Below, piece by piece: positions 2,657-59,086 of a stretch of 64,000 nt of DNA. Source of the stretch: an uncultured virus (IMG/VR IMGVR_UViG_3300033562_000771). Lineage: Duplodnaviria; Heunggongvirae; Uroviricota; Caudoviricetes. The stretch's first letter is position 1; every line of letters starts with the position of its first letter. The notes below the pieces were generated by a model. The model did no database searches, was not told the DNA's origin, and saw nothing but the letters and a program-made list of their open reading frames with translations. The position numbers and the translations under genes were made by a program. The stretch spans positions 1-64,000 of the IMG/VR virus record IMGVR_UViG_3300033562_000771; one strand, written 5' to 3'.

Positions 2657-2836
2657 TTAATTAGAGGGTTGTCTTAATTTAGATATAAGTTCAACCGAGA
2701 GTGCAGGGGAGATGTCCCCCCTGCACTTGCAGCATCTATAAACCGACACACGGACAATACCATCTCGATATGTGTGGTAAACGGGTAACAGTTCCCGTGG
2801 TGTCATTTCGTGCCCACAACTAGCACACGTAAACAT
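2657..2836 (-). CDS. 59-aa zinc-ribbon protein (below the ORF-track cut-off)
   Basis: Manual translation MFTCASCGHEM...YRCCKCRGD...; ATG directly follows the stop of the RNA ligase gene. Confidence 0.55.
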   Translation of the reverse strand: MFTCASCGHEMTPRELLPVYHTYRDGIVRVSVYRCCKCRGDISPALSVELISKLRQPSN

Positions 2837-3961
2837 TTAGTTCTCAACATCCTCAAGTGGAACTTTCATCCAGTCTAGGGTAGATTTAGGGCTAGCAGTC
2901 TTAAACCAATCCATTGCCGAATCTATTCGTCCCCCACGAAGAGCAAAAAGAACTGCAGAGTATTTATACGTAAGCGCCACACCCGCAAAATCCTTCTGGA
3001 GTTCTATATCCTTAAGCTTACTATATACAAGGTTAATTTCAGAGACCAATTCAAGCAATTTACCTTGGAGGTCTACAATACGAGACTGTAGAATCTTAGG
3101 GAGAACCGACAGGACATCATCAGTCTTACCGCTAAGGAGAAGTTCTAGACGGGATCGGTTGCTACGCCCCAAACCATCAACCTGATGAGAAATGAGGCAG
3201 TATGCGTCACTCTTCAGCTTTACACGGTTAAACTTAGAGTCCATCAACACAAAACCTTCATACTGAAGAGGGTGTCGAGTCTGAACAAACTCTCGAATAG
3301 CCTCCTGAGAGAACTTTTCATAGAGCTTAACGATGGGAAGAGGAAACTCGGGATGCTCCAACGACCAACTCTGGACATCTAACTCCGTGTTAGAGCACAG
3401 GTCTCGAATAGCCAGAAGAACCAAATTGCGGCCACTGTGACGGACAACAACCTGATTTTCTTCGCAGAGCAACTCACATACATAACAATAATTAGGATCC
3501 AAGTGGGTCTGCAAAGCTTCCCAGGAGGTCCCCATGTCGCTCAATGCTTGAAGAACAAGTTGGTAGAAAGTCATACCAAAATCCCCAACAGGAGTCGAAC
3601 CGTCTGGAACCGAACGAGTCGAAACTTGCCAACCAGCGGTGTTATGATGCCAGAGAGTAATCAGAGAACCATCAAGCTTTTCGGTAGTCTTAAAATTCTC
3701 CCAATCAAAATCTGCGGGGATATGCCCCTCCCCATAGTTAAAGAAGCGGGGGAATGCCCACGCCTTAATATCCCAGCTATCTAATTCTAGGGTTAAAGAA
3801 CGGCACTCCTGAACTAGAGGGTGGCTTATGGGGGACTCAAACTGAGAGTAGTTCAGGCACACCACATTAAGGTCCGAGTTGACTCGAAACCCAATACCAA
3901 ACTCGGCCTTGAGATCCTCAAGACTCTTACCGCCTCGCAGATATTCTTGAACCTTGAGCAT
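2837..3961 (-). CDS. T4 Rnl1-like RNA ligase
   Basis: ECRSLTL, FPRFFNYGE, motif I EKLDGS, EGFV and RVKLKS motifs. Confidence 0.88.
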   Translation of the reverse strand: MLKVQEYLRGGKSLEDLKAEFGIGFRVNSDLNVVCLNYSQFESPISHPLVQECRSLTLELDSWDIKAWAFPRFFNYGEGHIPADFDWENFKTTEKLDGSLITLWHHNTAGWQVSTRSVPDGSTPVGDFGMTFYQLVLQALSDMGTSWEALQTHLDPNYCYVCELLCEENQVVVRHSGRNLVLLAIRDLCSNTELDVQSWSLEHPEFPLPIVKLYEKFSQEAIREFVQTRHPLQYEGFVLMDSKFNRVKLKSDAYCLISHQVDGLGRSNRSRLELLLSGKTDDVLSVLPKILQSRIVDLQGKLLELVSEINLVYSKLKDIELQKDFAGVALTYKYSAVLFALRGGRIDSAMDWFKTASPKSTLDWMKVPLEDVEN

Positions 3962-3976
3962 AATATCTCCTCGCTA

Positions 3977-3984
3977 TAAATACG
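3977..3984 (-). promoter_or_regulatory. Representative of the recurring CGTAT(C/T)TA upstream motif (putative early/middle promoter)
   Basis: Copies at 1665-1672, 2393-2400, 3977-3984, 17791-17798, 21187-21194, 23480-23487, 27133-27140 and 29697-29704, each shortly upstream of a start codon. Confidence 0.7.
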
Positions 3985-4008
3985 GGAGCTTTACTCAAAA
4001 GATCCATC

Positions 4009-4617
4009 TTAAATTTCTGGGGCAATTGTCATCAGAATTTCTTCCAGTCTACGTATTCCATATGGTTTAGCTAGAAGAGTTACCCCAACATACGTGGACG
4101 CAAGGAGTTGTGCAACCTCGTCAATGACTCCACTGGCTAAAATTATGGGTGTAGTTGCTAATAAATCACGTAGGCGTGGGAGGGTCCCCGCTCCACCTAG
4201 CCCAGGCATCCGCATGTCTAGGATAATAATATCTGGCTTGAGCCCCCCCTGAATAAGCGCGAGACTTTCCTCCCCACTTTGTGCGGTGGCTACCTCATAC
4301 CCGAGAGTAGTTAAAAGACTCACACCAGCTTCAAGCAATAAATCATTGTCATCTATGAATAACACTTTTACATTTCTCATGGCCAATTTACCCCCGTGGG
4401 TCAATTTCTTAACCTGAAGTTCTCGCTTAAGCGCTTCAGATTTATTTCCGGCCTTTACTAAAAAGATTAACTGTATAGGACCGCGCCCTCTGGTATATTT
4501 AGCACCCTTCCCCGCCTGATGTGCCCGTAGTCTTTTAAATGGATCTGGGGAGATCCCTGTATAAATTGAACCGTCACCGCACAACAGGAGGTAGAGATAC
4601 CATAGGTTCGATTTCAT
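4009..4617 (-). CDS. GIY-YIG nuclease fused to a response-regulator receiver (REC) domain
   Basis: N-terminal WYLYLL.C.DGSIYTGI...RL.AH..GKGAKYTRGRGP (UPF0213-type GIY-YIG). C-terminal VLFIDD...IILDMRMP...LASG...LLAKPY (REC with Asp, Ser/Thr and Lys-Pro). Confidence 0.88.
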   Translation of the reverse strand: MKSNLWYLYLLLCGDGSIYTGISPDPFKRLRAHQAGKGAKYTRGRGPIQLIFLVKAGNKSEALKRELQVKKLTHGGKLAMRNVKVLFIDDNDLLLEAGVSLLTTLGYEVATAQSGEESLALIQGGLKPDIIILDMRMPGLGGAGTLPRLRDLLATTPIILASGVIDEVAQLLASTYVGVTLLAKPYGIRRLEEILMTIAPEI

Positions 4618-5188
4618 GTAGAAGTTTTTCCATGAGAGCTGGAGTTCTAGTTTTATTGTATGTATCTAGTTGCTTTTTACTTATGGAACGTCCAGGGGCA
4701 CCTTGAAGGGCTTCAGACATATTTCTAGCTCGGATAGTTCCCATATAGCAATCATTGGGTCTCCCGCCCACGATATACTGGATATCTTTAAGAACATCTT
4801 CTCGATATCGGCAAGGCCAAAAATAATATGTCTTGATCGTTGGGTCCTGCTTGACGGTATTAGATCTAGTTTTATAAGGTATGCCCAATCTATCCAAGGC
4901 GGCAGTAACTGTATAGAAACTCACCCCCAAGGTTTCGGATACCGCCAACCTCGAATTTAATTTCGAGAAAGACTTCTGAATATCTGCGTCCGAAACATAC
5001 ATAGCTACTCTAGGGGTTTGAATAACTCGTGCTCTATAAAGTCTAGCCATGATAGCTCGAACAGAGATACCTAGGTTCTTTGAGATAAGCTTAACGCCCT
5101 CTATTGAGGGGTTCTCATTATAGAGAGCCACAATAGAGGGCGTAGAATGCTTTATACGCATCGAAAGCTCTCTAGTGCCCCGCACCAT
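4574..5188 (-). CDS. Putative HTH DNA-binding protein
   Basis: Two HTH-like segments (ISKNLGISVRAIMARL; VSETLGVSFYTVTAAL). Confidence 0.5.
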   Translation of the reverse strand: MVRGTRELSMRIKHSTPSIVALYNENPSIEGVKLISKNLGISVRAIMARLYRARVIQTPRVAMYVSDADIQKSFSKLNSRLAVSETLGVSFYTVTAALDRLGIPYKTRSNTVKQDPTIKTYYFWPCRYREDVLKDIQYIVGGRPNDCYMGTIRARNMSEALQGAPGRSISKKQLDTYNKTRTPALMEKLLHEIEPMVSLPPVVR

Positions 5189-5615
5189 TCAAAAATTCCA
5201 AGAAGGCGTTGTAGACCTCTCTAGCCTCACCTGGACCCTGCTCAACAGCAACCCCACGGACCCAGAAACCATCTGGACCAATCTTTAGGATCTCATTATT
5301 CTCTTGAGTATGAAAAACGATGTTGTTTGGTTTAATTTCATTAGAGAGTATTTGGTCTGACACTCTGAGGCTCCTCAAGGATGTAACAGTCTGTTTTTTT
5401 AACGATATTGATATACCCGGAGGGTTCTCTACTCTTAAACCCTTCAGTCCAGACACCTAAAAATGGGACGGTGGTACCCACCAGGGGTGCATACCACATC
5501 AGGGGGTCCGAACATTTAGTTATATAAAGCAGCTTATCCATATCAATATCTTAATACAGACTAGAAACATCCTGACGAGAGTTTACGAAACTTTAAACCA
5601 ATTAAATGCCCTACC

Positions 5616-6278
5616 TTAATTCTCTGCTTCTATATAAACATCTTTAATGTAAAAGCTTCCTGAGGCATACATGGTTTTTAAAAGGGCATTTTTATATGGA
5701 TTAGATTTTGCTGTAAATCTTACTTTAAAGTTATCTAAAGATGTAGAAGGTAAAGTACCTAAATCAAATGGTGTTGTATAGGTTCTACTACCATTATTTG
5801 AAGATACATTGGTGATAAATACACTTGTCCAGACTGTTCCATTTATTGAATACTGTATTGTTAGGGCAGCTTGCACAGGTTCAAACGTCTCTTGATCTTC
5901 TTGTATTGTAGCACTCCAATCATATGTTAAATACAGCTTGTATTTTGTATATGTAGTAGAACCAGAAAAAGAGTATGTTTCATAAACTGTTACACTGTTA
6001 GCAAAACCACTCTGCAATGAAGCATAGGTTGTAGTAGTTCCCGGTGTTCCAGCACCATCATATGCACTAGCATAACCTGTCGCTGAACCTGCTCTTGCAG
6101 AAGGTTTTGCAAAAACATTTAAGCTATAGCTTTCAATTACACCGTTCCACATTGTTATAGCTGATCCAGCAGGTCCATACTTCAGGGGTGTTATTAACGC
6201 CCCCGTTGTTGTATTTAAGCAGGATGCTTCAATAGGCCGAACGATATTTCCGGTAGTAGCTGAGAATCTATAGGGCAT
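5616..6278 (-). CDS. Tail-fibre-associated beta-sandwich protein
   Basis: Ser/Thr-rich, AYDG...T, IQYS.NG..W, ends F.IKDVYIE; coupled to the tail fibre gene by a TAATG overlap. Confidence 0.55.
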   Translation of the reverse strand: MPYRFSATTGNIVRPIEASCLNTTTGALITPLKYGPAGSAITMWNGVIESYSLNVFAKPSARAGSATGYASAYDGAGTPGTTTTYASLQSGFANSVTVYETYSFSGSTTYTKYKLYLTYDWSATIQEDQETFEPVQAALTIQYSINGTVWTSVFITNVSSNNGSRTYTTPFDLGTLPSTSLDNFKVRFTAKSNPYKNALLKTMYASGSFYIKDVYIEAEN

Positions 6279-7460
6279 TAGATTGGATCCAGTTGTAGCT
6301 GATTGCTGGCGTTAATAGATAACCTGAAGCGAGTACCTGAAGGATTACGCATTATAATACCGCCTGCAGTGCCATTATTTGTAGCCTCAAATTGAGTACC
6401 TCCAATAGCAGCGCCAGTGGAACCAATGTTTACATCAGTAATAATCTTAGCCCATGGCGACCAAGCACCAGTATCATTATCTCTCTTCGACCTTATGTAG
6501 TTATCAGCGTGAGAGCCATCAGAACCAGACCAACCTAGTAAGAGTTGATTTGCACCCCCACCTCTCATATGAAGAACATTACCATAAGAGGTAGGATAAC
6601 CATCCCCAGAATAACATCCATAGAAGTTTAATCCATCTGTACCCCTAGTGGTTCCTGGCGCGGCTGCTGTATAAATACCTTTCCAGGCTAAAGAACCATT
6701 GAAAGATGGAGCAGTGATCACACCAGCACTATTGATTCTTACACCACCCGTACCATTCCAAGCACCGATAGTTAAAGAGCCCTGGCCTGAAGTTCCATTG
6801 GTAAATACAAGAACATTATCACCTTCTTGTACTGCTGGATTATAAGCACCCGTAGGTTGGTTATTGACTAATAGATTGTAAGCAGAGCCGGTTTGAGATT
6901 TAATACTAGAACCGATGATTTGACCAGTAGAGGTTAAAGGTCTATACATTAAAATAGTTCCGCCAGCACTATTAGGAATGACCAAAGGTTGATCAATCCA
7001 AACACCGCTACTATTCCAAGAGCTAAAAGAAACATTATTAGCATCACAATACAAAGCTGCTCTGGTTTGACCTGCTACACCAAACTGATATCCACCTATT
7101 TGCCCTGCTACAGCATTTACTCTGAAAATACTTGTAGAAGATGGATGAGAAACACTTACTGTATCAGTAAATCCACCGGAAGTACCGATAAAGGGTAAGT
7201 GAGCCTGCACATAGTTTCCACCACTAGATAAGGATAAACAATCTGTTCCTGCGGTTTGCAGTTTTAAACCACCCTGAGAAGAGCTATTCATTAAATAGCT
7301 CCAGTTATTTGTTTTTGGTAAGTCTATATCACCTGTAAAAGTGGCAAGGCCAGTAGCAGCAATGGTTAGTTTTGTTTCTAATCCAAGGGCGTCTGATGTC
7401 TTGGTCTTGAAGTACAAACAGCCGTGGCCGTAGTCGTTTGCAACCTGCTCCATAGACACC
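6278..7460 (-). CDS. Tail fibre, C-terminal part (frameshifted from the N-terminal part), with a knob-like receptor-binding domain
   Basis: Gly/Ser/Thr-rich; YPTSYGNVL...YIRSKRD...WSPWAKI knob-type motif; protein-like sequence begins at EQVANDYG, where the upstream ORF loses its tail-fibre character. Confidence 0.7.
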
Positions 7461-9236
7461 ACCAAAAGCAATACCTGCGGATCTACCCATGGTAATACCA
7501 CAAACCACTTGATCCATTGAGGTACCATAGTTATTAGTGATCACCAGGGGTTTTGTTGACACCGCTGACGAATCTGTAAGAGTGCTAACTCCTGCGGCGA
7601 AGGTACCAGTGAAAGATCCTGAGAGAGCGTTAATGGAACCATTAGCCGTTATATTACCGTGGAAGTTGACATTATTAGTTCCAGTTGGTAACGTCATTAC
7701 ATAGGCGGTATTAGCAGCATTAACTAAAGAAAAATCATAGGTTGATCCGGTCTTAGGCCATAACAATAAGCCCTGAGAAGGAGTCCATAAAATACTTCCA
7801 GCAGCACTATTAGTAGACCCATTTACAAGTAAACAAGAAGCTTGAATCGAGCTAGTGAATGTTCCTGTAGTGGCTGTTAAAGCTGCTGATGTTATTTCAT
7901 TCAGAGCATAAGAAGGCTTTGTAGCAGCTTTAGCCCATGCTGAAACATCTGATGCAGGTCTAGAGTTAGTCAGTCTAGAATCACTGGAGAGTATTACAGA
8001 AGTGTTTGTAGCTCCAGGAGTGAAGGTAAGGATTCCAGCAGTACCAGGAGCTTTCATTTCAAAGCCTGTCCTGTCTCCTGTTGTTCTGAAGTATCCAGAG
8101 ATAGCTGAAGCCTCTTCAATCTCTAAGCCAGAAACAGCACCAGAAGAAGCTACACCATTCTTATTAAGTGTTATTAGCTTATCTGATACTGCAATGTTAG
8201 TAGTATTGATTGTAGCTAGTGTTCCAGCTATGGCTACAGTGTCTCCAGCACCACCAAGATTAATGGTAGTGGTTCCTGATCCTGTTCCTATGTTGATTGT
8301 TTGGGTAGTAGAAGCTGTTCCAAGATTGATTGCTGAAGCTGTTGATGTTCCTAGATTCAGGGTGGCGGCATCAGCGGCTAGTGCGGTAGTTGCGGTAGCT
8401 GCATTTCCAGTAGTGGATTGATTCAAGACAGGGAATGTGCAGTTAGTAAGGTTCCCACTGGATGGGGTGCCCAACGCCCCACCTGGGGCTACATAATCAG
8501 ATCCTGCTGTGGCCGCAACCAATGCAGAAGCACTTCCCTTCAGAATCCCTGAAATTGTAGTAGTTAAAGTAATAGCTGGGGTTGTAGTTGAGTTAGCTAC
8601 GCTACCCCCAAATCCATTTGCAGAAGCTACGGATACCGAGACTACGGTTCCGGTGTTTGAGGTATATCCTGAAGGATTCGTAGCATTGTATGGGGTAAAC
8701 CCTAGGGCTGTTGTGACGTCCCCTGAGGATATGGATGTGATATACGTTGAGGTATCCACACTCCAAGTGTTTTCCGCTGTTTTCTTTAGAAGACCCGTAG
8801 TTCCAGATAACTCTGCAATAGCCGTTAAGTCACCATCAAGCGGCTGATATACTGAGGCATGGTTATGTGAATCTAATGAATACGTAGACGTATCATAATT
8901 GATGACCCCAGCCGTAGATTTTACAAAACCAGTCCCAGTTAGGGGCTCCTGGAAATCTACCCCAGCCACGGCAGCTACTACACTAGATCCGTTCCCCTTG
9001 AGCAAACCTACAACAGTAGTAGTTATAGAGGACCCACCAAAAACAGACCATCCTGCAGACCCATAGATATAAGGGAGTTGGTCGGTAGTATTATAATAAA
9101 ACCTTCCCACGGCAAGGCTTCCAGAATCCCCAGTAACCTCTGTAGGGTGCGAGGCTAGGTTCTCCATAACCGCTTGAATAAACGGTATTTGATTAAAATC
9201 CATCGCGGATCTTTGTTCGATACCCTTCTTGTCCAT
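7329..9236 (-). CDS. Tail fibre, N-terminal part
   Basis: Typical fibre repeats (YQPLDGDLTAIA, VTTALGFTPYNATNPSGY, DKLITLNKNG, DVSAWAKAATKPSY); start placed at ATG 9236 after GGAGGG. Confidence 0.75.
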   Translation of the reverse strand: MDKKGIEQRSAMDFNQIPFIQAVMENLASHPTEVTGDSGSLAVGRFYYNTTDQLPYIYGSAGWSVFGGSSITTTVVGLLKGNGSSVVAAVAGVDFQEPLTGTGFVKSTAGVINYDTSTYSLDSHNHASVYQPLDGDLTAIAELSGTTGLLKKTAENTWSVDTSTYITSISSGDVTTALGFTPYNATNPSGYTSNTGTVVSVSVASANGFGGSVANSTTTPAITLTTTISGILKGSASALVAATAGSDYVAPGGALGTPSSGNLTNCTFPVLNQSTTGNAATATTALAADAATLNLGTSTASAINLGTASTTQTINIGTGSGTTTINLGGAGDTVAIAGTLATINTTNIAVSDKLITLNKNGVASSGAVSGLEIEEASAISGYFRTTGDRTGFEMKAPGTAGILTFTPGATNTSVILSSDSRLTNSRPASDVSAWAKAATKPSYALNEITSAALTATTGTFTSSIQASCLLVNGSTNSAAGSILWTPSQGLLLWPKTGSTYDFSLVNAANTAYVMTLPTGTNNVNFHGNITANGSINALSGSFTGTFAAGVSTLTDSSAVSTKPLVITNNYGTSMDQVVCGITMGRSAGIAFGGVYGAGCKRLRPRLFVLQDQDIRRPWIRNKTNHCCYWPCHFYR

Positions 9237-14326: not shown

Positions 14327-15037
14327 TTACGCTTGGTATTCATTTGGGAAAGCTTCCCGGACTTTGGCATTCAGAAAGGCATAAACAGCCCCCAGATCGG
14401 ACGATCCAGTATACCCCATATCCTTGATAGCTTTCTGACATTGAGGGCCAATCTGCCCATCAATTGCCCCAAAAGTAGCTCCAAGGCGAACCAGAGCACT
14501 TTGAATGACGAACCCCTGACGGTTTTCCTTAAGAACATCCACCTCAATACCCTGTTCAAGAATGGCTAACGCGGCCATAATCTGGTAGGGCTTCCAACTA
14601 GGGGAGTGGGCCTTTGCATAGTCATAAACTTTCTGAAAGCTACCCCTAAAGTCAAAATGCCAGGACTCAGAGGCTCCCATTTTGGGTTTATCAATAATAG
14701 GCATAAACCCAATAGGCTTGGCGATATCCCAGAACTCCTGCAAAGATAACGGGGAGATAGCTTCCAGGGAGATATCCATAGCTCGTCCAGCTTCATGCAT
14801 AGACCCGCCTGGGGCTGGAGAAAAAGCCTTCTTTTTCCCGCTTGTGTAATCCAAATGAGCTTGAAACTGCATGTCATAAGATCTAAATAGGTCCGAAAGT
14901 ATCAGTTTAGCGCCCTTAGCAGCCAGGGCCTCCTCAAGGGCCTTAATGCCATCAATCATATCAGATGTGCAGAGAGCCATACGAGAAGGCATGGGTTTGT
15001 TATTGTAAATGGAGGCAACTACGATAGGCTTAAGCAT
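14327..15037 (-). CDS. Endolysin: M15-family zinc peptidase with a C-terminal peptidoglycan-binding-like segment
   Basis: FRSY..Q, PGGSMHEAGRAMD (SxHxxGxAxD), ESWH; C-terminal IDGQIGPQC..AI. Confidence 0.82.
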   Translation of the reverse strand: MLKPIVVASIYNNKPMPSRMALCTSDMIDGIKALEEALAAKGAKLILSDLFRSYDMQFQAHLDYTSGKKKAFSPAPGGSMHEAGRAMDISLEAISPLSLQEFWDIAKPIGFMPIIDKPKMGASESWHFDFRGSFQKVYDYAKAHSPSWKPYQIMAALAILEQGIEVDVLKENRQGFVIQSALVRLGATFGAIDGQIGPQCQKAIKDMGYTGSSDLGAVYAFLNAKVREAFPNEYQA

Positions 15038-15298: not shown

Positions 15299-16408
15299 TT
15301 AGTGAATATCAGAGTTTTTGTTTCTAGATTTAGGCTCTTCATCCTTCTCAATAGTTTTCTTAAACCCAGTATTTGCAGCCACATGAAAAATAACAATTCC
15401 CTCTGGTTTCATAAACCCAGGGGCTGCAACACTACCTCCAGTTTTGAGCTTCTCCAAAACCTGATCAATGGTAGCTGTATCAAAAAGTCCTCGATAGAGT
15501 TCCGGGACCAAGTGGCAGCACTCAGGTAGCCGTTCCTGGGTATTTATAATACGAGGATCGGCTGTGGGGTAACTCATGGGTTCGGCGTTCCACAGACACC
15601 ATCTAGATGTATTGAACAGACTGAACCTTTTCTCACTGAGACCATATTTCCTCTGGATTCCGCTGTTGTGAACCAAAATATTGTTCGCAAAAAAGTTATG
15701 GTTATCCTCGATTTCCAGATCAAACCTATATTTTGACCTCCGCGAGTTAGCAAAAGCACGGTCAATTTCTACAATTTCAGCCCCCGCTAAATTTTGTAAC
15801 TCTGAGTATTTAATATCCTGAACTTCAGAGTTTATGTAAAGGATATCGCCTATGTGTAACTCTCCTGCTGGGCACTCTTCTTGTTGTCCCGAACTGTTTT
15901 TTCTAAAAACAATATGGTTAGGAGTTAAATTGACACAAGTTTGTTTTCCCCCCTTCCACTTTCGTCTAACCCGTATGGTCAACCAATCATTTGTTGAAGG
16001 GCCTCGTTTCCAACCAATTACTTTCTTTGGTTCTATCTTGTGCGTATCAAAGTTGTAGCTCAGCACAGTAACGGGTAGTCTGTTATTGACTATTTTACCA
16101 ATTTTTTCTGTAGAACCATCTGCTAAGGTTATGGAAACTTCACTGGCTAGGCACCCCCACCATTCACCTCGGTGGAGGCCTGGACCTAGCGAGACTAGGT
16201 CATCCTCATGATCCTGAACCCACCTAGCAAACCCGTAATTGTCATCCTCGGGAGTGATCCACCTATTTCTAGATCCAGCATAAATCTCTAGATTATCCGT
16301 GATATAGATTGTGCTGTTAGTGCCATCGATCTTCTCGCTAATGATCATTTCACGAGAAAGTCTTGAAATTTTTGGGAATTCGCAGAAATCCATTGGCGGG
16401 ATATTCAT
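15299..16408 (-). CDS. RNA ligase (Rnl2-like nucleotidyltransferase) containing a mini-intein
   Basis: EFPKI.RL, EKIDGTN, GSRNRW, GEWWG|SGIQ, LFN, VP.LY.G, PEGIV and KK motifs. Confidence 0.85.
   Translation of the reverse strand: MNIPPMDFCEFPKISRLSREMIISEKIDGTNSTIYITDNLEIYAGSRNRWITPEDDNYGFARWVQDHEDDLVSLGPGLHRGEWWGCLASEVSITLADGSTEKIGKIVNNRLPVTVLSYNFDTHKIEPKKVIGWKRGPSTNDWLTIRVRRKWKGGKQTCVNLTPNHIVFRKNSSGQQEECPAGELHIGDILYINSEVQDIKYSELQNLAGAEIVEIDRAFANSRRSKYRFDLEIEDNHNFFANNILVHNSGIQRKYGLSEKRFSLFNTSRWCLWNAEPMSYPTADPRIINTQERLPECCHLVPELYRGLFDTATIDQVLEKLKTGGSVAAPGFMKPEGIVIFHVAANTGFKKTIEKDEEPKSRNKNSDIH
15665..16153 (-). mobile_element. Mini-intein (163 aa) in the RNA ligase
   Basis: Starts CLASEV, block B LTPNH, ends FFANNILVHN followed by Ser; no LAGLIDADG motifs. 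Confidence 0.9.
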
Positions 16409-47630: not shown

Positions 47631-48332
47631 CTAGTAGACAGCCTGCTCAATATCTAATTGAACAGTAAGATTATCTAGGGTGGCGTTGCCTGCGGTCACA
47701 ACCACCTCAAGATAATCACCGACTACAAGAGGGGAACTTAATCCCGTAAGGGCATCAACCCACAATTTACCGGAGGCATTATCTGGGATCGTAACTGTGT
47801 AGAGTGCTGTTGAGCTACTATTTTTATAAATAGCTATGGAAGCCACTCCGGACACAGCAGTAAGGGTATTTCTAAACCAGCGAATTGCCTTTAAATTCGA
47901 TAGTGTTTCCACGCGATACACAGGCTGGCGATCTAGGATATTAAGAGGAGTTTCATAAAACCAGCGAAAAGGTGCCCGTAGTGCCAATGACGTCAGAGCA
48001 ATCTGCGTAGCTGTTGACACGGGTTTATCCATGTCAGAAGTATTATTTACATTGTCTAATCCAATGTAGGTAGCTGTAACAACAGGGGTATTCCATGCAG
48101 ATCCATCCCAAGTAACCTCAACTCCCTCGTCAACAATCCAGGTAGAGACCCCCTGGATGGGCTTAATAAACTTCCAGGAGGACCCTGTCCAGGTGGCGAT
48201 GTGATGGTCTTTACCTTCCCAGAGACCTACTGCTGTTGCAGCAATAATCAGTTTGGATTGTCTGGTAGGATTTGAAACGGGTGCTTTGTAAGCACGGGAA
48301 TCAACCGTAGTAGGAATGAGGGGGCTAGCCAT
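47631..48332 (-). CDS. DUF2793-domain tail-associated protein
   Basis: DUF2793-type N-terminus; GLDNVNNTSD.DKPVSTATQ.AL fibre repeat; C-terminus homologous to that of the 38370-40850 protein. Confidence 0.75.
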   Translation of the reverse strand: MASPLIPTTVDSRAYKAPVSNPTRQSKLIIAATAVGLWEGKDHHIATWTGSSWKFIKPIQGVSTWIVDEGVEVTWDGSAWNTPVVTATYIGLDNVNNTSDMDKPVSTATQIALTSLALRAPFRWFYETPLNILDRQPVYRVETLSNLKAIRWFRNTLTAVSGVASIAIYKNSSSTALYTVTIPDNASGKLWVDALTGLSSPLVVGDYLEVVVTAGNATLDNLTVQLDIEQAVY

Positions 48333-49492
48333 ATATAGTTCTCACAAGAAAGGGGGTCCATGAGGAGTGTAGTAGATGGGTATGTTGTTATGATATGATC
48401 TTGGGCTCTTGAGCTGTTAGGAACTAAACCACCTTATAGTTTCACACTTCCGCCAGTTACATTACCCCCAACGGTTCCGGGTATTGCGTTGTTCGCAATA
48501 ATCACCGATAGAGCCTCACCGACATACCTGATACCAACAGGCTGTGCCCCAGTGAACGTGGCTGGTTTGAGCCTAATCGTAGACCCATTTATTGCATAGG
48601 CCATGATGCTTATCGTATAGGCTGATGCAATAAATACTGCTATCGAATACCCCATGGTGCCAACGTATCCCCCGTCTTCCGCGATAATGTGATGGATAGC
48701 GGGGCCATCAATAGAGTAATTCCCAATGATCTGGATTACAGAGCTTCTAGCCCACATATGCTGATCGTGTGCATATCCAAAAGAGATATCCGAAATAGTA
48801 AGGTATGCTCCCAGTTGCGCGAACAAAGCTAGCGAGCCATTTGCGATAACCCTAAACCCTCGAATAGTCCACTGTGATCTCATGCAATTAACCAACGGGC
48901 TGGACGTATTCGATATTATACAGTTTGATGGTGTTGTGATGTTCCCCTCAATGATTGGGGGCTTCCAGTTCCCGACATATTCACCCAATAACAAATTGGT
49001 CCCGCTCGTGTTGTAAGTTCCATCTGCGACCTTGATGGTCACCTGGAATATATTCATGTCTATGTCTAAGCTAACAACATTGACTGCTTTCTGGATAGTG
49101 AGGAAAGCTCCACTAGCATCATTGACTAGGCCGGTATTGCTGTCATTACCGTCTGTCCTGACGTAATAGATCCGATCAGCATGAAGGATTTCACGAGATT
49201 CACCTCCGCCGCTTCCACCAGAAGGAACCACCCATGCAGATCCATCCCAAGTAGCCTCAACTCCCTCATCAACAATCCAGGTAGAGACCCCCTGGATAGG
49301 CTTAATAAACTTCCAGGAGGACCCTGTCCAGGTGGCGATGTGATGGTCTTTACCTTCCCAGAGACCTACTGCTGTTGCAGCAATAATTAGTTTGGATTGT
49401 CTGGTAGGATTTGAAATGGGTGCTTTGTAAGCACGGGAATCAACCGTAGTAGGTATGAGTGGACTAGCCATATATAGTTCTCACAAGAAAGG
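48093..49492. repeat. Near-identical 261-bp direct repeat (48093-48353 and 49232-49492)
   Basis: Covers the upstream region and first ~80 codons of both DUF2793 genes; few substitutions. Confidence 0.92.
48434..49471 (-). CDS. DUF2793-domain tail spike-like protein with a beta-helix-type C-terminus
   Basis: YYVRTDGNDSNTG......FLTIQKAV...I.VADGTY (pectin-lyase-like fold entry motif). Confidence 0.75.
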   Translation of the reverse strand: MASPLIPTTVDSRAYKAPISNPTRQSKLIIAATAVGLWEGKDHHIATWTGSSWKFIKPIQGVSTWIVDEGVEATWDGSAWVVPSGGSGGGESREILHADRIYYVRTDGNDSNTGLVNDASGAFLTIQKAVNVVSLDIDMNIFQVTIKVADGTYNTSGTNLLLGEYVGNWKPPIIEGNITTPSNCIISNTSSPLVNCMRSQWTIRGFRVIANGSLALFAQLGAYLTISDISFGYAHDQHMWARSSVIQIIGNYSIDGPAIHHIIAEDGGYVGTMGYSIAVFIASAYTISIMAYAINGSTIRLKPATFTGAQPVGIRYVGEALSVIIANNAIPGTVGGNVTGGSVKL

Positions 49493-50420: not shown

Positions 50421-51821
50421 TCAAATAACTCGGTAGCAATTTCGCCCGGATCCCTTAGCATCGTAAAGGGCCTGATCTACCCGAGCCATAATAGCCTCTG
50501 CCGTATCAGTCATTTTTAATCCAGTAATACCGGATGAGACAGTCATGTTAAACGAAAGTGCCCCATGTGAAACAACTGTTTCAGACACAGATTGTCTAAT
50601 TCTCTCCACGAGAATCTTTGTGGCATCTACAGAAGTTCCCTGAAGAACCACTGCAAACTCCTCACCTCCCAATCTACCTAGGAAATCTGATTGGCGTAGA
50701 CACCCCTGAATGACACCCACAAATTGGAGCAGAGCTGAGTCCCCGGCTGGGTGCCCATATGTATCATTAATTTTCTTGAAGTAATCTATGTCTAGCATAG
50801 CCACGGATAGAGGTATTTTATATTTAAAAGCTCGATCCATCTCATCATTCAACCGTTCCATAAAATATCTACGGTTAATCACACCAGTAAGCCCATCCAG
50901 AGTTGCAAAATCCGTGAGGATAGACTCTTTTTTCTTCTGAGCAGTGATATCTGTAGACACGCCGACAAACCCAAATACCTCCCCCTTAGCACCCCTCAGC
51001 ACAGTATATCTAGTCAGCATCCAAATCGTAGACCCATCCTTACGGTAGACCTCTGCCTCTACTGAGTCCCCTATATACGTAGGGTCATCTAAAAAGCGAA
51101 GGCGTTTTTGGATAGTTTTAACCGTTCCAGGGGCGTATCGTTTTTCTAAAGGTAGCTTTAAAATCTCATCCACGGTAAACCCGGTATACCTAGTCACAGC
51201 AGGGTTTACATAAGACATATTAAAAGATTGGTCCATCATCCATACAATGTCAGTTAGAGATTCTGTTAGCGTTCTAAACTTAACCTCACTTAAGCTGAGC
51301 TGAAGCTCCGCAATTTTTCTATCCGTGATATCTTCTGAAACTCCGATAACTCCAGTAGGAACATCATTAACTATTAAAGGACATTTTGTGGTAAGTGTGT
51401 AGCGTTGTTTACTATCCGAGGGTGGACTCAAGGAGTAGACTCTTTTCAAAGTTGTCAACACCTCAAGATCCTCTGATCTGAAGTGTAGCGCTAAACTACT
51501 ATCCACCAGTTCGTAGTCAGTTTTTCCTATAACTTTATCCATAGATAGTTTATTCATATCCGCGAAAGGGCGGTTGCACCCCAGGAACACACTATCTGTG
51601 TCCTTCCAAAACACCCCCTGGGGGATTGAATCCAGGATACTGCTAATAAAAAGACGATCTTTAGCTAGTCTTTTACGCTCAGAATCCCAAGGTTTTGCGA
51701 GATCATTTAGCATAGAGACAAATTCACTACACTCAGGTGAAAGACCCTCAAGTGGGATGGTCCCACCCTTACGGAGGGTCTCAAAATTATCCCTTAATAG
51801 ATCAAGGCAAGACTTGGTCAT
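50421..51821 (-). CDS. PAS-PAS-GGDEF diguanylate cyclase
   Basis: Two PAS/PAC domains (VFWKD....F.GCN; Y.NPA...G; DIT..K); D.LTG..NRR, DIDYFK.IND.YGH..GD, RQSD I-site and GGEEF active site. Confidence 0.95.
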   Translation of the reverse strand: MTKSCLDLLRDNFETLRKGGTIPLEGLSPECSEFVSMLNDLAKPWDSERKRLAKDRLFISSILDSIPQGVFWKDTDSVFLGCNRPFADMNKLSMDKVIGKTDYELVDSSLALHFRSEDLEVLTTLKRVYSLSPPSDSKQRYTLTTKCPLIVNDVPTGVIGVSEDITDRKIAELQLSLSEVKFRTLTESLTDIVWMMDQSFNMSYVNPAVTRYTGFTVDEILKLPLEKRYAPGTVKTIQKRLRFLDDPTYIGDSVEAEVYRKDGSTIWMLTRYTVLRGAKGEVFGFVGVSTDITAQKKKESILTDFATLDGLTGVINRRYFMERLNDEMDRAFKYKIPLSVAMLDIDYFKKINDTYGHPAGDSALLQFVGVIQGCLRQSDFLGRLGGEEFAVVLQGTSVDATKILVERIRQSVSETVVSHGALSFNMTVSSGITGLKMTDTAEAIMARVDQALYDAKGSGRNCYRVI

Positions 51822-54517: not shown

Positions 54518-54567
54518 GTATGCTACCTCTAAAATATATCAGAGTCCAATTAAAGTGACTTTGGGGG

Positions 54568-55065
54568 TTAGCTGTTATGAGAGACAACCCCATTGGTTAT
54601 ATATGTGCAAATTATTGGGACTCTAATGTCGTAAACATCCTCTAGGCCATCTGAAATAGATACAATTGAAGTATGGTCAACAAGATACATTTCATCAGTA
54701 TTTTCCTGGCTAAGATCATACAACCCAACCCAGTAAACCTGATCGCCCTCCCTTAAGTCACACCCATACTTCCAGACAGCAACCTCATGGAGGTCCTCTG
54801 TAATAGAAGGTACTTTCAGGATGTGCTCTGGCGTCATGGACAGAGTTATCCCACTTGAAAAGCTTATAACAAGAACTTTTCTGGGACCTCCATAGTACAT
54901 TTCGGTAGCGTCCCCAGGCCCCAAATCAGTCGCTATTTTAACAGGCTTGGGAAATGTGTGGAGTGTGTCAGGAATAAGCGGAAGTTCCTCTGGCCAAAGA
55001 TCCTTCAATTTATGGAATCCTGACTCTGTTATGATATACGTGCCCCCAGCCACACAGTTCGCCAT
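54568..55065 (-). CDS. Free-standing mini-intein/Hint-domain protein
   Basis: MAN|CVAGGT...TPEH...VYDIRV.....YITNGVVSHN|S-stop. Confidence 0.85.
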   Translation of the reverse strand: MANCVAGGTYIITESGFHKLKDLWPEELPLIPDTLHTFPKPVKIATDLGPGDATEMYYGGPRKVLVISFSSGITLSMTPEHILKVPSITEDLHEVAVWKYGCDLREGDQVYWVGLYDLSQENTDEMYLVDHTSIVSISDGLEDVYDIRVPIICTYITNGVVSHNS

Positions 55066-55067
55066 GA

Positions 55068-58000
55068 TTATCTCTTCTTACTCTGCTTGATAGCCATCAT
55101 CCGAGCAAAGGATCTAGGGTCACTAGCGGCACTTGCTCGGTAGCGAGAAACTGCACCCCTGTCGGTCATATACCCAGGGTTACCCGAGACGGTCCCCATA
55201 CGAGTTACCTGCTGAGCTGGAGCCTTTCCTGACCCTCGTGACTCTAGGAAGCCCATGGCCACCCAGCAAGCTCTTGCGATAGCGTCAGCTCTATCATCGT
55301 GGTATTCGTCTCCGTGGGGGGCCTCAACCTTAATTCGATTCCCAGGACGCAACTCACATTGCAGAAGCTGAATTTCGTTCTCAAGATCTTTATTGTTAAG
55401 CGTGGGGATATTTAGCTCTTGATTTAATGATAATGCACGAAAGGATAGGTATACGAGGGAATTGGTTGACTCAGTGAAAGATTCCATTCTAAGGCCCTTA
55501 ATGCCCTTTTTGGCTAACATTTGCCCAAAAAGAGTCCCAGACCATTGGTCATAAACACCATCTGCAATGGGGTATACTTGAGATAACTGGTAGAGCCATT
55601 CAACGATATCATCCCCGGTTAGCTCTTTCTTATGTGCATACTGGCCTTCTCCAGCTTTTCTACGATCTACATAATCAAAGACCAATTTACGGGTTGCCAG
55701 CAACTCATTAGTTTCCCAATGGCAAATAGCTACCGCAGCAGCGTCATTCTTCAACCCCAAGTCGAAACCATAAAAGTATTGAGGCCAGATAGCTTTAGGG
55801 AAATACTGGTATGCAAGTGTGGGGTTATTCTGTCTAATAGTATTATTGGATCTGGATTGATTGAACATCTCATTTAACTCTTCCATGGAGAGCCACTGAG
55901 AGATCGAATCCACAAATTCAGACTGATACTCGGTACGGTAAGCGGTGTCACCATACCTATTGAAGTAAGCTAAAAGTTCATGAGAACTAATTCGTGTAGG
56001 GTTTAATTCGCAGGTAGGTGCCTGATACACAATGGCTGATGCATTATCCCCCTCTTTTTTAGCCTTTTCAATCATTTCAAAGAACTGGCCCGAGCGCACC
56101 CCCGCGTTAGAGATCAGGAAAATCATAGCTTCAGAGTGGGAGTCTTCTGAAGTTTTAAATGTGGCTAACGAAGGTTCAATAGCCTTCAGCACCTCTAGAT
56201 CTGATACCGCACCCCTATGCGGCCAGTGAGCGATCTCATCGCAAACAGACCTGTAAGATGCAGGGCCACGAACCTGGGATTCAGATAGAGGGAACGCTTG
56301 AACAATAATAGACGGGAACTGTGCATTTTGCTCACGCTGGAACGGTGTGTATATTTTACAGAATAGTTCCTGCAGATCTTCTTTGTTGCAGTAGTTTGTG
56401 AAGTATCCAGAGCTTGACAACATATTGCGAACTTTGCGGAAAGTTCGTTTAGATGAATCCTGAGAGGTTCCCAGCACAGGGATAAAGATTTCGGTGTTGG
56501 GTGGCATATGGTAATAATCATGGGGGTTATACTTCTCAAGGAGTAAGTAGATCCCATATGCCATATCCAATGCGGTGATCTCAGAATTATGAGAAACTAT
56601 ACCATTTGCTAGGTAGGTGTTCCCATCAGGAACATGTAAGTCGTAAACTTCTCCCTCGGACTCTTCAATGGAGACAATCTCAAGCGGGATTATTGTATCA
56701 AAAATCCACTTAAGTTCTTCCAGTTCTTTAGTAAACTCCGGTGAAGGAAGTGATTGTCCAATCTGAGAGTCTTGAGAATCCTTCCTATAATCAGCAATAG
56801 CCTTAGAAATAGCTCTGCCAATCTCAAGCCCTGTAGTTCTGCGGTTATTAGCTTTTTGGAAATGAAGGAGGTCACTAGCACTCAGTGTATGTGCATGAGC
56901 ATAGACTTCAAGATATTTTTGATAATAGGCATAGTAATCATTGAAGCCCTTAGGGGTGATTTTAAATGACTTGGTGCGATCAGTGTGATAGCCGAAGGAA
57001 TGCTGTGAGAAAATACGTTCGAATCTAGGCAGCAGATTGTCGTAAGCGCCGAAAGAAGACTTATAAGAATGCTTGGCTTGCTTGGTCAATAGCTCTTCTG
57101 TCTTACGCTTTAGTGGGCAATACTTAAAGATGTCCAGAAGCTTATTTGTGTTTGCGCCTACCGTGGTAAGTTTCCAATAGGTTCCACCCTGGTTCCCTGG
57201 CTTAGGCTTTACAACTTTCTGGTGGATGGTTGAATGCACACCTAATGAGAGAAATAACTGCTGAATATCCTCGATGAGGCCTTTAGGCTTTAGGGTAATT
57301 TCAAAATGACCTAAATCTTTAGTTACATGCCCATCTGTTGCAAGCAATCCTGAGAGGAAGGCTTTACGGGCTTCAGGGGGAAAGGCCAATATTTTTTCAG
57401 AAACTCTTTTTTGACTCTCCTGGTATGACGTGAGACCCCACGTCCTTTTGAAGGGTCTTCCTGAAGATGCATGGATAGTCCAAGCCCATACGTTGCTATT
57501 TGTTGTGTAGACACTTTTACGGTGAGAAAGTTCATGCGTTGTTAAAAAACTATCCACAAAGTTAACCAACCCCCACTCAGATTTATGACTGCATAAACCC
57601 AGGGAATACTCATCACCCCACCAACCATCCCCATAGAGCATCCCAAGGAAAAGAGCTGATTCTAGTGTGTCCTTAGAAGTGGGAGCTTCACTTATAGGTG
57701 TTTCAGCCAGTAAACAAAACGTATCCCCCACCACGAAATCCCCAGCCAATTTCCAGACATAGGCCCCTTCAAGATCAAGGGTCCTGAATTTATGTTCTGG
57801 GGAAGGCTCCACTGAGATTCCGTTGCTTAGCTTCAGTTTTAAGAGTTTCTTAACCCCTCCGTAGTAAATCTCAGTAGCCTGTTTCCATCCTCGATCAGTC
57901 ATGACAAAAGTCGGGGAAATTAGAGGCATATAGTTATCCTTAACCTTATCCTCTAGAGGCCAAAGATCACTTATTTTAACTAGTCCATTATCGTGTGTAT

Positions 58001-58361
58001 TAATTAGCGTGGAATGTAGGCACGTTTTGCCCGACCTCCTGCCCCAACAGCGAATGAAAGTGCTGAAGTTACCCTCTATGTGAGCCATATCATGGGTGAG
58101 ATTTAATCTACCAACTTCTTCGTTTAAATATTTTCGATATTCAGTCTCAGTAAGGGTGTAGAGCAAGTTCTCTTTGAACTTATCCCATACTCGGATGACT
58201 TTTGCCTTGTCATCCAAGGGTATCTTATAAATTAACTTGACCGAGAATCTTTGTGCCGGGGTTAGCTCAATTTGAGGCCCCCACGCTGCTTCTGCAAAGT
58301 CTAAAATTGAAACCAGATTACGCTTAACACGCTTATTTAGTGAATTAGCAAGTAAAGACAT
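55068..58361 (-). CDS. terL: Terminase large subunit with an intein
   Basis: Walker A GRRSGKT, Walker B VCDEIAH, ISN coupling motif, EY.SEF, RNase H-type GFDLG...D, YDQW, HDD.ADA. Confidence 0.9.
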   Translation of the reverse strand: MSLLANSLNKRVKRNLVSILDFAEAAWGPQIELTPAQRFSVKLIYKIPLDDKAKVIRVWDKFKENLLYTLTETEYRKYLNEEVGRLNLTHDMAHIEGNFSTFIRCWGRRSGKTCLHSTLINTHDNGLVKISDLWPLEDKVKDNYMPLISPTFVMTDRGWKQATEIYYGGVKKLLKLKLSNGISVEPSPEHKFRTLDLEGAYVWKLAGDFVVGDTFCLLAETPISEAPTSKDTLESALFLGMLYGDGWWGDEYSLGLCSHKSEWGLVNFVDSFLTTHELSHRKSVYTTNSNVWAWTIHASSGRPFKRTWGLTSYQESQKRVSEKILAFPPEARKAFLSGLLATDGHVTKDLGHFEITLKPKGLIEDIQQLFLSLGVHSTIHQKVVKPKPGNQGGTYWKLTTVGANTNKLLDIFKYCPLKRKTEELLTKQAKHSYKSSFGAYDNLLPRFERIFSQHSFGYHTDRTKSFKITPKGFNDYYAYYQKYLEVYAHAHTLSASDLLHFQKANNRRTTGLEIGRAISKAIADYRKDSQDSQIGQSLPSPEFTKELEELKWIFDTIIPLEIVSIEESEGEVYDLHVPDGNTYLANGIVSHNSEITALDMAYGIYLLLEKYNPHDYYHMPPNTEIFIPVLGTSQDSSKRTFRKVRNMLSSSGYFTNYCNKEDLQELFCKIYTPFQREQNAQFPSIIVQAFPLSESQVRGPASYRSVCDEIAHWPHRGAVSDLEVLKAIEPSLATFKTSEDSHSEAMIFLISNAGVRSGQFFEMIEKAKKEGDNASAIVYQAPTCELNPTRISSHELLAYFNRYGDTAYRTEYQSEFVDSISQWLSMEELNEMFNQSRSNNTIRQNNPTLAYQYFPKAIWPQYFYGFDLGLKNDAAAVAICHWETNELLATRKLVFDYVDRRKAGEGQYAHKKELTGDDIVEWLYQLSQVYPIADGVYDQWSGTLFGQMLAKKGIKGLRMESFTESTNSLVYLSFRALSLNQELNIPTLNNKDLENEIQLLQCELRPGNRIKVEAPHGDEYHDDRADAIARACWVAMGFLESRGSGKAPAQQVTRMGTVSGNPGYMTDRGAVSRYRASAASDPRSFARMMAIKQSKKR
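56586..58022 (-). mobile_element. Intein (479 aa) with a LAGLIDADG homing endonuclease in the terminase
   Basis: CLHST start, SPEH block B, FLGMLYGDG and FLSGLLATDG motifs, ends NGIVSHN followed by Ser. Confidence 0.93.
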
Positions 58362-58408: not shown

Positions 58409-59086
58409 CTAGTCCCCCTCTTCTAGCTTATTAGGAACTATTGGCTGTTGTGTCCAGTGTGTCTCAGTTTGGACATGATTTGGCCGCACCCATTTAGCGA
58501 GTGCTTTTGAGAATTCCGCACGGTTAAACGCCCTAGCCAACCTAACTACAAAACCCTCCTGCCCACCCCCAAAAGAAGAGGTCCCCGAGAAAAATTTCTT
58601 CTCTAGGTTATCCTCCACAAAGGGTCCTTTATAGAGAATTGGAACTGTTTTTAAATTGAGTTCATTGCAAATTAGAACCGTGTCATCCCAGGACAAACAC
58701 GTATCTCCCTCCCATACACTAAACACTAAGAAATAACTGGGAAGCTTATCATACCCGAGTGAATGCTGGGCGAAAACATTCTCCCCACAGATCCGCATTC
58801 CATCAGGTATCTTATAACCAATCTCACTCTGGAGTCGTTTCACCCAATTCCTTGAGGGATGGTTATTACTATCTAGTGATCGAGAATGCAAATAGTCAGG
58901 GTAAATGGTTGTATTTTCCCCATCCATTTTCTCAGTTATTACGACCTCTTGTCCTTTAAAATGATCCATACTACTTAATATTTTATCATCTGAGGTAGCC
59001 CCAGGGCTCCCCGGAATATGAAACGTTCTAGGATACTTATATCTTGGGTTAGAATCAGCTAAAAACAGGCGAGACACTCTTAACAT
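58409..59086 (-). CDS. RNA ligase family protein
   Basis: KYPRT.H...SPG..SDD, TEKMDGEN, H.RS, CGEN, VF.VW, EGFVVR and KWVR motifs. Confidence 0.85.
   Translation of the reverse strand: MLRVSRLFLADSNPRYKYPRTFHIPGSPGATSDDKILSSMDHFKGQEVVITEKMDGENTTIYPDYLHSRSLDSNNHPSRNWVKRLQSEIGYKIPDGMRICGENVFAQHSLGYDKLPSYFLVFSVWEGDTCLSWDDTVLICNELNLKTVPILYKGPFVEDNLEKKFFSGTSSFGGGQEGFVVRLARAFNRAEFSKALAKWVRPNHVQTETHWTQQPIVPNKLEEGD

Follow-up and report, generated by a model that had tools for sequence, protein, structure and literature searches.

Class 1 mini-inteins, such as TvoVMA (4O1S), Mxe GyrA (1AM2), Ssp DnaB M86 (6FRH) and Pho RadA, are characterized by a Hint fold without endonuclease in which Cys1, Thr B7 and His B10, Asp F4, the terminal His-Asn and a +1 Ser are found. 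These traits are common to the stand-alone Hint gene described here, whose model is matched to these structures by Foldseek with E values of ~1e-8 and TM scores of 0.70-0.81, but which has no host protein, its exteins being reduced to 3 and 1 residues between its own start and stop. BIL domains of types A and B are likewise Hint domains found outside the usual intein setting and devoid of an endonuclease; as they are described in the available text of PMC4031507 they lack the +1 nucleophile, whereas the stand-alone Hint has Ser+1 and is for this reason not assigned to the BILs. Moreover, unlike BILs, it does not belong to any larger protein, and its nearest sequence relatives beyond one homologue of similar size (P0013) are inteins embedded in RNR, DnaB, polymerase and terminase. 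Phages are also said to harbour "fractured genes", in which the parts of split inteins lie on separate ORFs in replication or packaging loci; in contrast, both halves of the Hint described here are in one chain and the intein of the neighbouring terminase is also complete, which distinguishes the locus from a split intein.

The yeast HO and WHO genes are intein-derived, independently expressed and free of exteins in the same way, but in the available text of PMC7282813 they keep the endonuclease, have added a zinc finger and lack motif G; the stand-alone Hint gene, in which motif G and the rest of the predicted splicing chemistry are kept and the endonuclease is lost, is their mirror image rather than a further member. 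The only structural precedent for two interacting Hint domains is given by domain-swapped inteins and iPAS (Npu DnaE variant 4KLS, Pho PolII 5BKH), whose swaps are homodimers of engineered or crystallised proteins, with no natural hetero-pair in the excerpts available of PMC8175363. A literature search by title or abstract start returned no stand-alone, free-standing or orphan intein or Hint gene like this one. In particular, the accessible part of a 2025 survey of actinophage inteins discusses free-standing endonucleases and reports inteins of class 1 and class 3 only, and the domesticated inteins named in the accessible part of PMC8987985 are all embedded regulatory inteins.

The stand-alone Hint gene and its locus

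The window, i.e., the whole stretch of 64,000 nucleotides that was analysed, corresponds to bases 1-64000 of a 128,938-bp virus record from a jumbo phage. A second IMG/VR record of 278,785 bp (estimated 95% complete) is 100% identical to it over 12.5-15.4 kb across the locus and, since it may derive from the same sample, is not regarded as independent support.

Positions 54568-55065 hold a genuine class 1 mini-intein gene, probably translated on its own, with an established ORF, fold and catalytic set (Table 1). The architecture MAN-C...HN-S-stop of the original prediction, with Cys1, block B TxxH, the terminal His-Asn and a +1 Ser, is present in each of its elements (codons ATG-GCG-AAC-TGT...CAT-AAC-AGC-TAA), and the catalytic set of a class 1 intein is complete (C4, T78, H81, D146, H163, N164 and S165). 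The N- and C-terminal intein profiles both match this one ORF, at residues 4-83 and 143-165; the match to NCBIfam intein_Cterm exceeds its cut-off, and the match to Pfam Intein_splicing (E 3e-4) lies under the curated one. No match to an endonuclease was found in the ORF, as predicted, and its place is occupied by a linker of ~20 aa. The protein is confidently modelled by AlphaFold2 as a Hint fold (pLDDT 90.5, pTM 0.84), and the best Foldseek matches of this model are all inteins, e.g., TvoVMA with an E value of 1.3e-8 and a TM score of 0.76. The host protein expected for a class 1 intein is missing, the exteins being MAN and S, with stops on both sides and neighbours out of frame; given the full residue set and the lack of any fusion to either neighbour, the description of a free-standing, catalytically complete mini-intein holds. 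Codon usage and GC resemble those of the neighbours (0.712 against a 5-95% range of 0.696-0.776). Stop-codon recoding at the gene was rejected because all three stops are in ordinary use (TAA 30, TAG 15, TGA 14).

Table 1. Coordinates of the Hint gene, of its neighbours and of the octapeptide ORFs (positions in the window unless the genome is named; a slash in a motif marks an extein-intein junction or an insertion site).
Feature	Position	Strand	Remark
Portal protein, 898 aa	51821..54517	-	no intein; 67% identical to the L005 portal
Spacer, 50 nt, with portal Shine-Dalgarno-like AGAGGT	54518..54567	-	missing from intein-free relative L005
Stand-alone mini-intein gene	54568..55065	-	165 aa = MAN + 161-aa Hint + S, stop TAA
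His163-Asn164 and +1 Ser165	54571..54579	-	Ser codon AGC
Block F Asp146 (F4)	54628..54630	-	class 1 type, not class 3 Cys
Linker motif WVGLYDLS	54709..54732	-	at the usual endonuclease site
Block B T78-P-E-H81 (Thr B7, His B10)	54823..54834	-	from sequence
Cys4, predicted nucleophile at intein position 1	55054..55056	-	TIGR01445 position 1 = residue 4
N-extein MAN, 3 residues	55057..55065	-	differs in homologue P0013 (MDGLSYT)
Terminase large subunit, 1097 aa	55068..58361	-	one intein in Walker A motif (GRRSGK/SEIT)
Terminase intein, 480 aa	56586..58025	-	probable Thr1...P-S-P-E-H...D(F4)...His-Asn/Ser+1; LAGLIDADG endonuclease
Thr113, probable terminase intein position 1	58023..58025	-	empty-allele comparison and profile register
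RNA-ligase-family gene	58409..59086	-	between upstream 239-aa gene and terminase; no counterpart there in L005, L006
Octapeptide ORFs in the window	59086; 11755; 12575	-; +; -	
Octapeptide ORFs in the genome	85852; 87556; 91347; 94121; 94894; 99392; 99869		

The ORF starts 2 nt after the terminase stop and out of frame with it, in agreement with the original prediction: the terminase TAA is followed by TC and then by ATG, and a TAA lies four codons upstream of this ATG in the Hint frame. On the opposite side, the 50-nt spacer contains stops in the Hint frame and in the portal frame, and an N-terminal portal intein was rejected because stops block the frames between Hint and portal. The assignment of the two flanking genes is supported by PHROGs, with E values of 2e-20 for the terminase (through an intein-free relative) and 3e-10 for the portal. 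In L005, whose terminase is 75% and whose portal is 67% identical, and which is the only close relative whose terminase-portal junction was read, the stop of the intein-free terminase overlaps the portal start (TAATG) with no gene between; relative to L005, the Hint gene is an insertion of ~550 nt made up of the 2 nt, the ORF and the spacer. The operon takes inserts readily, since the RNA-ligase gene upstream of the terminase is also missing from L005 and L006. The ribosome-binding site of the portal is stronger than that of the Hint gene (-7.1 against -3.1 kcal/mol), so that Hint translation would most simply depend on coupling to the terminase stop.

Neither a promoter nor a terminator signal exceeded chance at the locus, and no convincing flanking repeat around the insertion and no shared spacer motif were found. 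The contigs of four of the seven sequencing runs listed, all of low share (X3, X4, X5 and X7), left almost the whole ORF uncovered and contained no joints. Ten distant terminase-portal loci of 25-31% identity, of which three have a Cys1 intein in the terminase, yielded no stand-alone Hint, a result that excludes close kin only, because the 5-sequence profile also missed the portal inteins of L002, an unrelated virus.

Several other features of the phage and its relatives were recorded. About 340 residues of the portal (about 190-530) are conserved in L005 and missing from the distant portals of ~590 aa, and the 898-aa protein has no match in Pfam or NCBIfam. In distant relatives (L011, L013, L014, L017, L018, L021-L023 and L025), 2-4 similar genes of ~175 aa with an R[ST]RD[CV]I motif are arranged in tandem between terminase and portal. 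A PAS-PAS-GGDEF diguanylate cyclase gene at 50421-51821 (-) overlaps the portal stop by 1 nt, and a different gene is located there in L005. The adjacent genes at 47631-48332 and 48434-49471 (-) share a 5' region of ~260 nt, upstream sequence included, at 97% identity and then diverge; this fibre-like pair is a recent duplication or a module swap. An octapeptide, M[LI][KR][VI]S[KR][IL][LF], opens ten ORFs (Table 1) with different downstream sequences and varying codons, and looks like a targeting or packaging leader of head-internal or injected proteins. 

Besides the Hint gene, three embedded inteins are encoded in the 279-kb record, in the terminase, in an RNA ligase and in a gene that appears by eye to be metallophosphoesterase-like. 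RNA ligase is an unusual host for an intein; the gene (Rnl2-like, 15299-16408, -) carries an endonuclease-less Cys1 mini-intein at GEWWG/S, and a further ligase-like gene was noticed by eye at 2837-3961. The metallophosphoesterase-like gene lies outside the window (L032 1-1737; G001 near 14,554), shows GNHG, HGD and GHYH motifs by eye and contains a Cys1 intein with an apparent endonuclease at IING/SLCG. In L002, a portal-like ORF (2674-8229, +; 1852 aa stop to stop) seemingly contains four inteins, judged by eye.

Relatives and origin of the Hint domain

The Hint protein gave 124 phmmer matches among 1,835,955,588 representatives; P0013 (169 aa, E 5e-36) is the only short full-length match besides the query, and the next match has an E value of 6.5e-18. 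P0013, which reads MDGLSYT/C...TPDH...D...YN/SLDLGVC, is 46-48% identical to the window Hint and shares with it Ser+1 and the linker pattern W.GL.DL, found only in these two among 137 proteins. Its C-flank SLDLG presumably resembles an RNase-H-like motif; the sequence sits on a single 7,812-bp contig and might be a piece of some host gene. When proteins of 90-296 aa in 5.8 billion clusters were searched with a profile, the window Hint and P0013 were again the only two recovered among 179 candidates, and none of the 124 phmmer matches is a host-embedded member of their lineage. Searches of IMG/VR with the Hint, its alignment with P0013, the terminase C-extein, alignment and intein, and the portal recovered only the phage's own 279-kb record and the weak, unrelated L002; nothing was found in GTDB genome scans, and among cultured phages the best matches were RNR inteins at 27% and a terminase at 31%, with no closer relative.

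The exteins of the two proteins share nothing (MAN and S against MDGLSYT and SLDLGVC), so that no spliced peptide is conserved: a conserved spliced micro-peptide as the product was rejected on these grounds, and the ligation onto other proteins that had been put forward in the original prediction is weakened by them.

For the phylogenetic analysis, 126 Hint domains were extracted from the matches, 66 with clean junctions were kept and the 24 nearest were used in a likelihood tree, in which the window Hint and P0013 form a clade (UFBoot 97) and the window Hint has a long branch (0.76 against 0.50). The three motif pairs reported to be shared with the terminase intein all fall within BLASTP alignments of 38% identity over 95 aa (E 7e-14) and over 77 aa (E 2e-8), and the two inteins belong to the same broad sub-clade; their +1 Ser codons are AGC in the Hint gene and TCT in the terminase intein. 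Two of the terminase-intein alleles are 39-40% identical to the window Hint and P0013, and the remaining one, P0007, ranked below the nine closest listed for either; the three alleles are 72-75% identical to one another. In AU tests on 24 domains and 135 columns, the placement of the window Hint as sister to the terminase intein of its own genome was rejected (p=0.0009), and an old sister relation of the extein-poor pair and the terminase intein was not (p=0.057). The stand-alone Hint is not a recent copy of the neighbouring terminase intein, and an orphaned duplication, the other origin considered in the original prediction, does not survive as a recent event in view of the 40% identity, against 72-75% among the alleles, and of the AU result.

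Conservation was evaluated against 60 host-embedded Cys1 domains, after one mis-assigned row had been dropped. The most conserved Hint columns are kept by the window copy in 15/15 and 24/30 cases and by P0013 in 12/15 and 25/30, the medians of the 60 embedded inteins being 14 and 26. In a neutral-decay simulation of 3000 runs, an open frame with six catalytic residues was kept in 28% of copies at 0.05 substitutions per site, in 1% at 0.2 and in 0/3000 at 0.4 (~47% identity), so that the Hint gene is either under selection or was orphaned very recently. Identity between the window Hint and P0013 is only weakly enriched at conserved columns (29/47 against 19/47, Fisher p=0.06), and the block F stretch of the window Hint is unusual, with P-I-I-C where its relatives carry P-D-x-H/N. 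The existence of a second extein-poor homologue with the same endonuclease-less linker suggests selection without proving it; the main weakness of this argument is P0013, which is only a putative complete free gene.

The intein of the neighbouring terminase

The kind of intein closest to that of the terminase is represented by the Ser1/Ser+1 inteins PolB16, Aes123 and Psp Pol-1, which, as described in the accessible text of PMC10189870, use hydroxyl nucleophiles at both junctions together with Asp F4, His B10 and His-Asn, traits that the terminase intein appears to share. The same text states that the change of Cys1 to Ser is usually inactivating and that Ser1/Ser+1 inteins carry an extra His at motif NX, where Tyr or Asn are also permitted. 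In contrast, the terminase intein appears to start with Thr1, is nested among Cys1 inteins and shows, in the N-terminal splicing region, no additional His that is invariant. The six close intein-free terminases read GRR[SA]GK/SE[IV]T at the insertion site (GK/SE in 6/6), and the three intein alleles, i.e., those of the window, P0003 and P0007, read GK/T-CLHSTLI, GK/T-IGKDCLI and GK/T-LSKSTII and end in HN/SEIT; from this comparison the intein would begin with Thr in all three. The TIGR01445 register agrees, since position 5 corresponds to residue 117 in P0002 and position 2 to residue 113 in P0007, which puts Thr at position 1. Cys114 was rejected as a general nucleophile of the terminase intein because it is found in the window allele only and is missing in two of the three alleles. 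To judge from these alignments, the terminase intein is very probably a natural Thr1 intein; Cys1 is present in 60/60 background domains.

All three alleles have Pro-Ser at B6-B7, where Pro occurs in 0/60 and Ser in 6/60 of the Cys1 domains, and Asp at F4; a His at F6, common to the alleles, is found in 3/60 background domains and also in P0013. Within residues 1-104, a single His, His78 (B10), is invariant across the three alleles, and the remodelled block B looks like an internal compensation for Thr1. The WCT triplet of class 3 (Trp B12, Cys F4 and Thr G5 in the available text of PMC2807308) is replaced by Phe B12, Asp F4 and Ser G5 in 3/3 alleles, and instead of the Ala1, Cys+1 and Ser G6 given for class 2 (KlbA type) in the excerpt of PMC4031507 the terminase intein shows Thr1, Ser+1 and His G6. 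In 2009, according to the accessible part of PMC2807308, Thr1 had not been observed in inteins, yet the S1T mutant of Tli Pol-2 splices; a figure legend of a 2020 review allows Thr1 generically (PMC7765530, seen as an excerpt). Our search, with subscription literature outside its scope, returned no description of a natural Thr1 intein.

The acidic residues D133 and D231 of the endonuclease are invariant in 3/3 alleles, and the terminases that carry the intein are not monophyletic (AU p=0.019), which is consistent with homing or repeated loss of an intein that is apparently mobile. A 151-nt record from run X4 (depth ~2) covers 56632-56765, in the C-terminal part of the intein, with 22 differences; of those listed, most lie at intervals divisible by three, the pattern expected of another allele subject to purifying selection. 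A single-sequence model of this intein, with a pLDDT of 40.8, was too poor for use, and a complex prediction for the Hint with terminase residues 95-610 gave no answer (score 0.00).

Possible roles of the Hint gene

The reading that we prefer, with a probability of about 0.42, is that the Hint gene is a selected, dispensable, self-processing cassette. The gene would have entered the terminase-portal junction in a cassette of ~550 nt and would be one of a small group of extein-less Hint genes, a lineage kept by selection on fold and active site. The protein would be made through translational coupling to the terminase stop and would process itself in cis by class 1 chemistry, as outlined in the available text of PMC4031507, with an N-S shift at Asn3-Cys4, transfer to Ser165 and cyclisation of Asn164; the predicted products are a free Hint of ~161 aa that begins with Cys and a negligible peptide of 3-4 residues. 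Since the exteins are not conserved, the selected product would be the reactive Hint domain and not a cargo, and the maturation of the terminase would be independent of it; as there is neither cargo nor endonuclease, selection would have to act on the Hint alone. Our guess is a sacrificial decoy, whose Cys/His/Asp centre might absorb splicing inhibitors (metal ions, oxidants, intein-binding factors) in a phage reliant on three embedded inteins. Against a selected cassette stand the presence of only two members, of which P0013 could be a host-gene fragment, the weak enrichment of their identity at conserved columns, the long branch, the odd block F, the weak ribosome-binding site and the 28% of neutral copies intact at 0.05.

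The weak ribosome-binding site and the long branch would equally suit an ordinary mini-intein that lost its host gene, or that illegitimate recombination brought to this site, and that is still intact because of the short time elapsed, the insert being tolerated since the portal has its own start signals. Such a recent orphan would agree with a gene known from one phage lineage only and absent in the 75% relative L005, with an operon that gains inserts as easily as the RNA ligase gene, with the simulation, in which 28% of copies were still intact after neutral drift to 0.05 substitutions per site, and with P0013 as a possible host-gene fragment. This account is possible, but we regard it as somewhat unlikely: no extein remnants are left, the start lying three codons before Cys1, the stop following the +1 Ser and the flanks measuring 2 + 50 nt; an unsampled embedded parent lineage is required, with none among the 124 matches; and, the nearest relative being also extein-poor, two independent orphanings or a mis-called P0013 are needed. 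It is very improbable, on the other hand, that there is no separate gene and that a programmed -1 frameshift close to the end of the terminase, within its final codons, or a faulty assembly fuses the Hint to the C-terminus of the terminase (or to the portal) as an autoprocessing domain. The genes are just 2 nt apart and the four codons that precede the ATG are open in the Hint frame, but no canonical slippery heptamer is found after the in-frame TAA, the C-terminus of the terminase ends where those of its relatives do, both relevant frames are stopped before the portal, all three stop codons are in normal use, a second assembly (perhaps of the same sample) is identical and P0013 has the same short form.

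The Hint gene adjoins the terminase, is probably translationally coupled to it and is absent where the terminase has no intein (L005), as would suit a trans partner of the Thr1 terminase intein, either helper or attenuator. Action in trans on terminase splicing was already considered in the original prediction; the Thr start of the terminase intein and its apparent lack of known alternative activators, which were not noticed there, would give it a motive. A helper would donate its block B lobe, with the canonical Thr-x-x-His, through a central domain swap, with both terminase junctions staying in cis; Thr1 itself could not just be substituted by a Cys1 from another chain, since the residue at position 1 has to be joined to the N-extein of the terminase. 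In an attenuator the N- and C-halves would be swapped and the terminase fragments capped by null exteins (N-extein-Ser and MAN-C-extein), a variant that the null exteins and the full active site of the Hint gene would fit. A partnership is further favoured by the common broad sub-clade, with an ancient sisterhood at AU p=0.057, by the features of the terminase intein (Thr1/Ser+1, B6-B7 Pro-Ser, Asp F4, no invariant His in the N-terminal region except B10), by the usual inactivation on Cys1-to-Ser change and the need of Ser1 inteins for an extra NX His in the text available of PMC10189870, and by the occurrence of both swap topologies in the crystals described in PMC8175363 (accessible part). 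However, no partner was detected with the Thr1 terminases P0003 (7 contigs, longest 30,914) and P0007 (19,881), which is indirect evidence, the sole homologue being on a separate 7,812-bp contig; no other 90-296-aa homologue was found, the remodelled block B may already compensate for Thr1 internally and the two Hint domains are only 40% identical. In addition, the accessible part of PMC8175363 judges the central-swap structure unlikely to be catalytically competent and reports that mixed products were not found, and in that of PMC2807308 S1T still splices in Tli Pol-2. Taken together, a partner in trans is unlikely, and the full proposal of a natural two-component splicing, in which a coupled, extein-less Cys1 Hint assists or throttles, by domain swapping in trans, a Thr1 terminase intein apparently without known alternative activators, is more doubtful still; if true, it would set the timing or the amount of the packaging motor. 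The stand-alone Hint could also be directed at competitors or the host, whose related proteins with inteins it would cap and destroy.

The two inteins are of interest for different reasons. A Thr1/Ser+1 homing terminase intein inside a Cys1 clade would represent a natural thiol-to-hydroxyl switch, a change that, according to the available text of a 2023 paper, has not been usefully achieved by engineering, and its three putative Thr1 alleles could be used for mechanism work and as cysteine-independent ligation tools. As regards the Hint gene, inteins are defined by their hosts, and here the whole predicted splicing chemistry is kept with neither host nor nuclease, so that the domestication of inteins becomes testable with a protein of 165 aa. 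A Hint gene of this kind has no selfish route to persist and, if selection is confirmed, would have a job of its own in infection.
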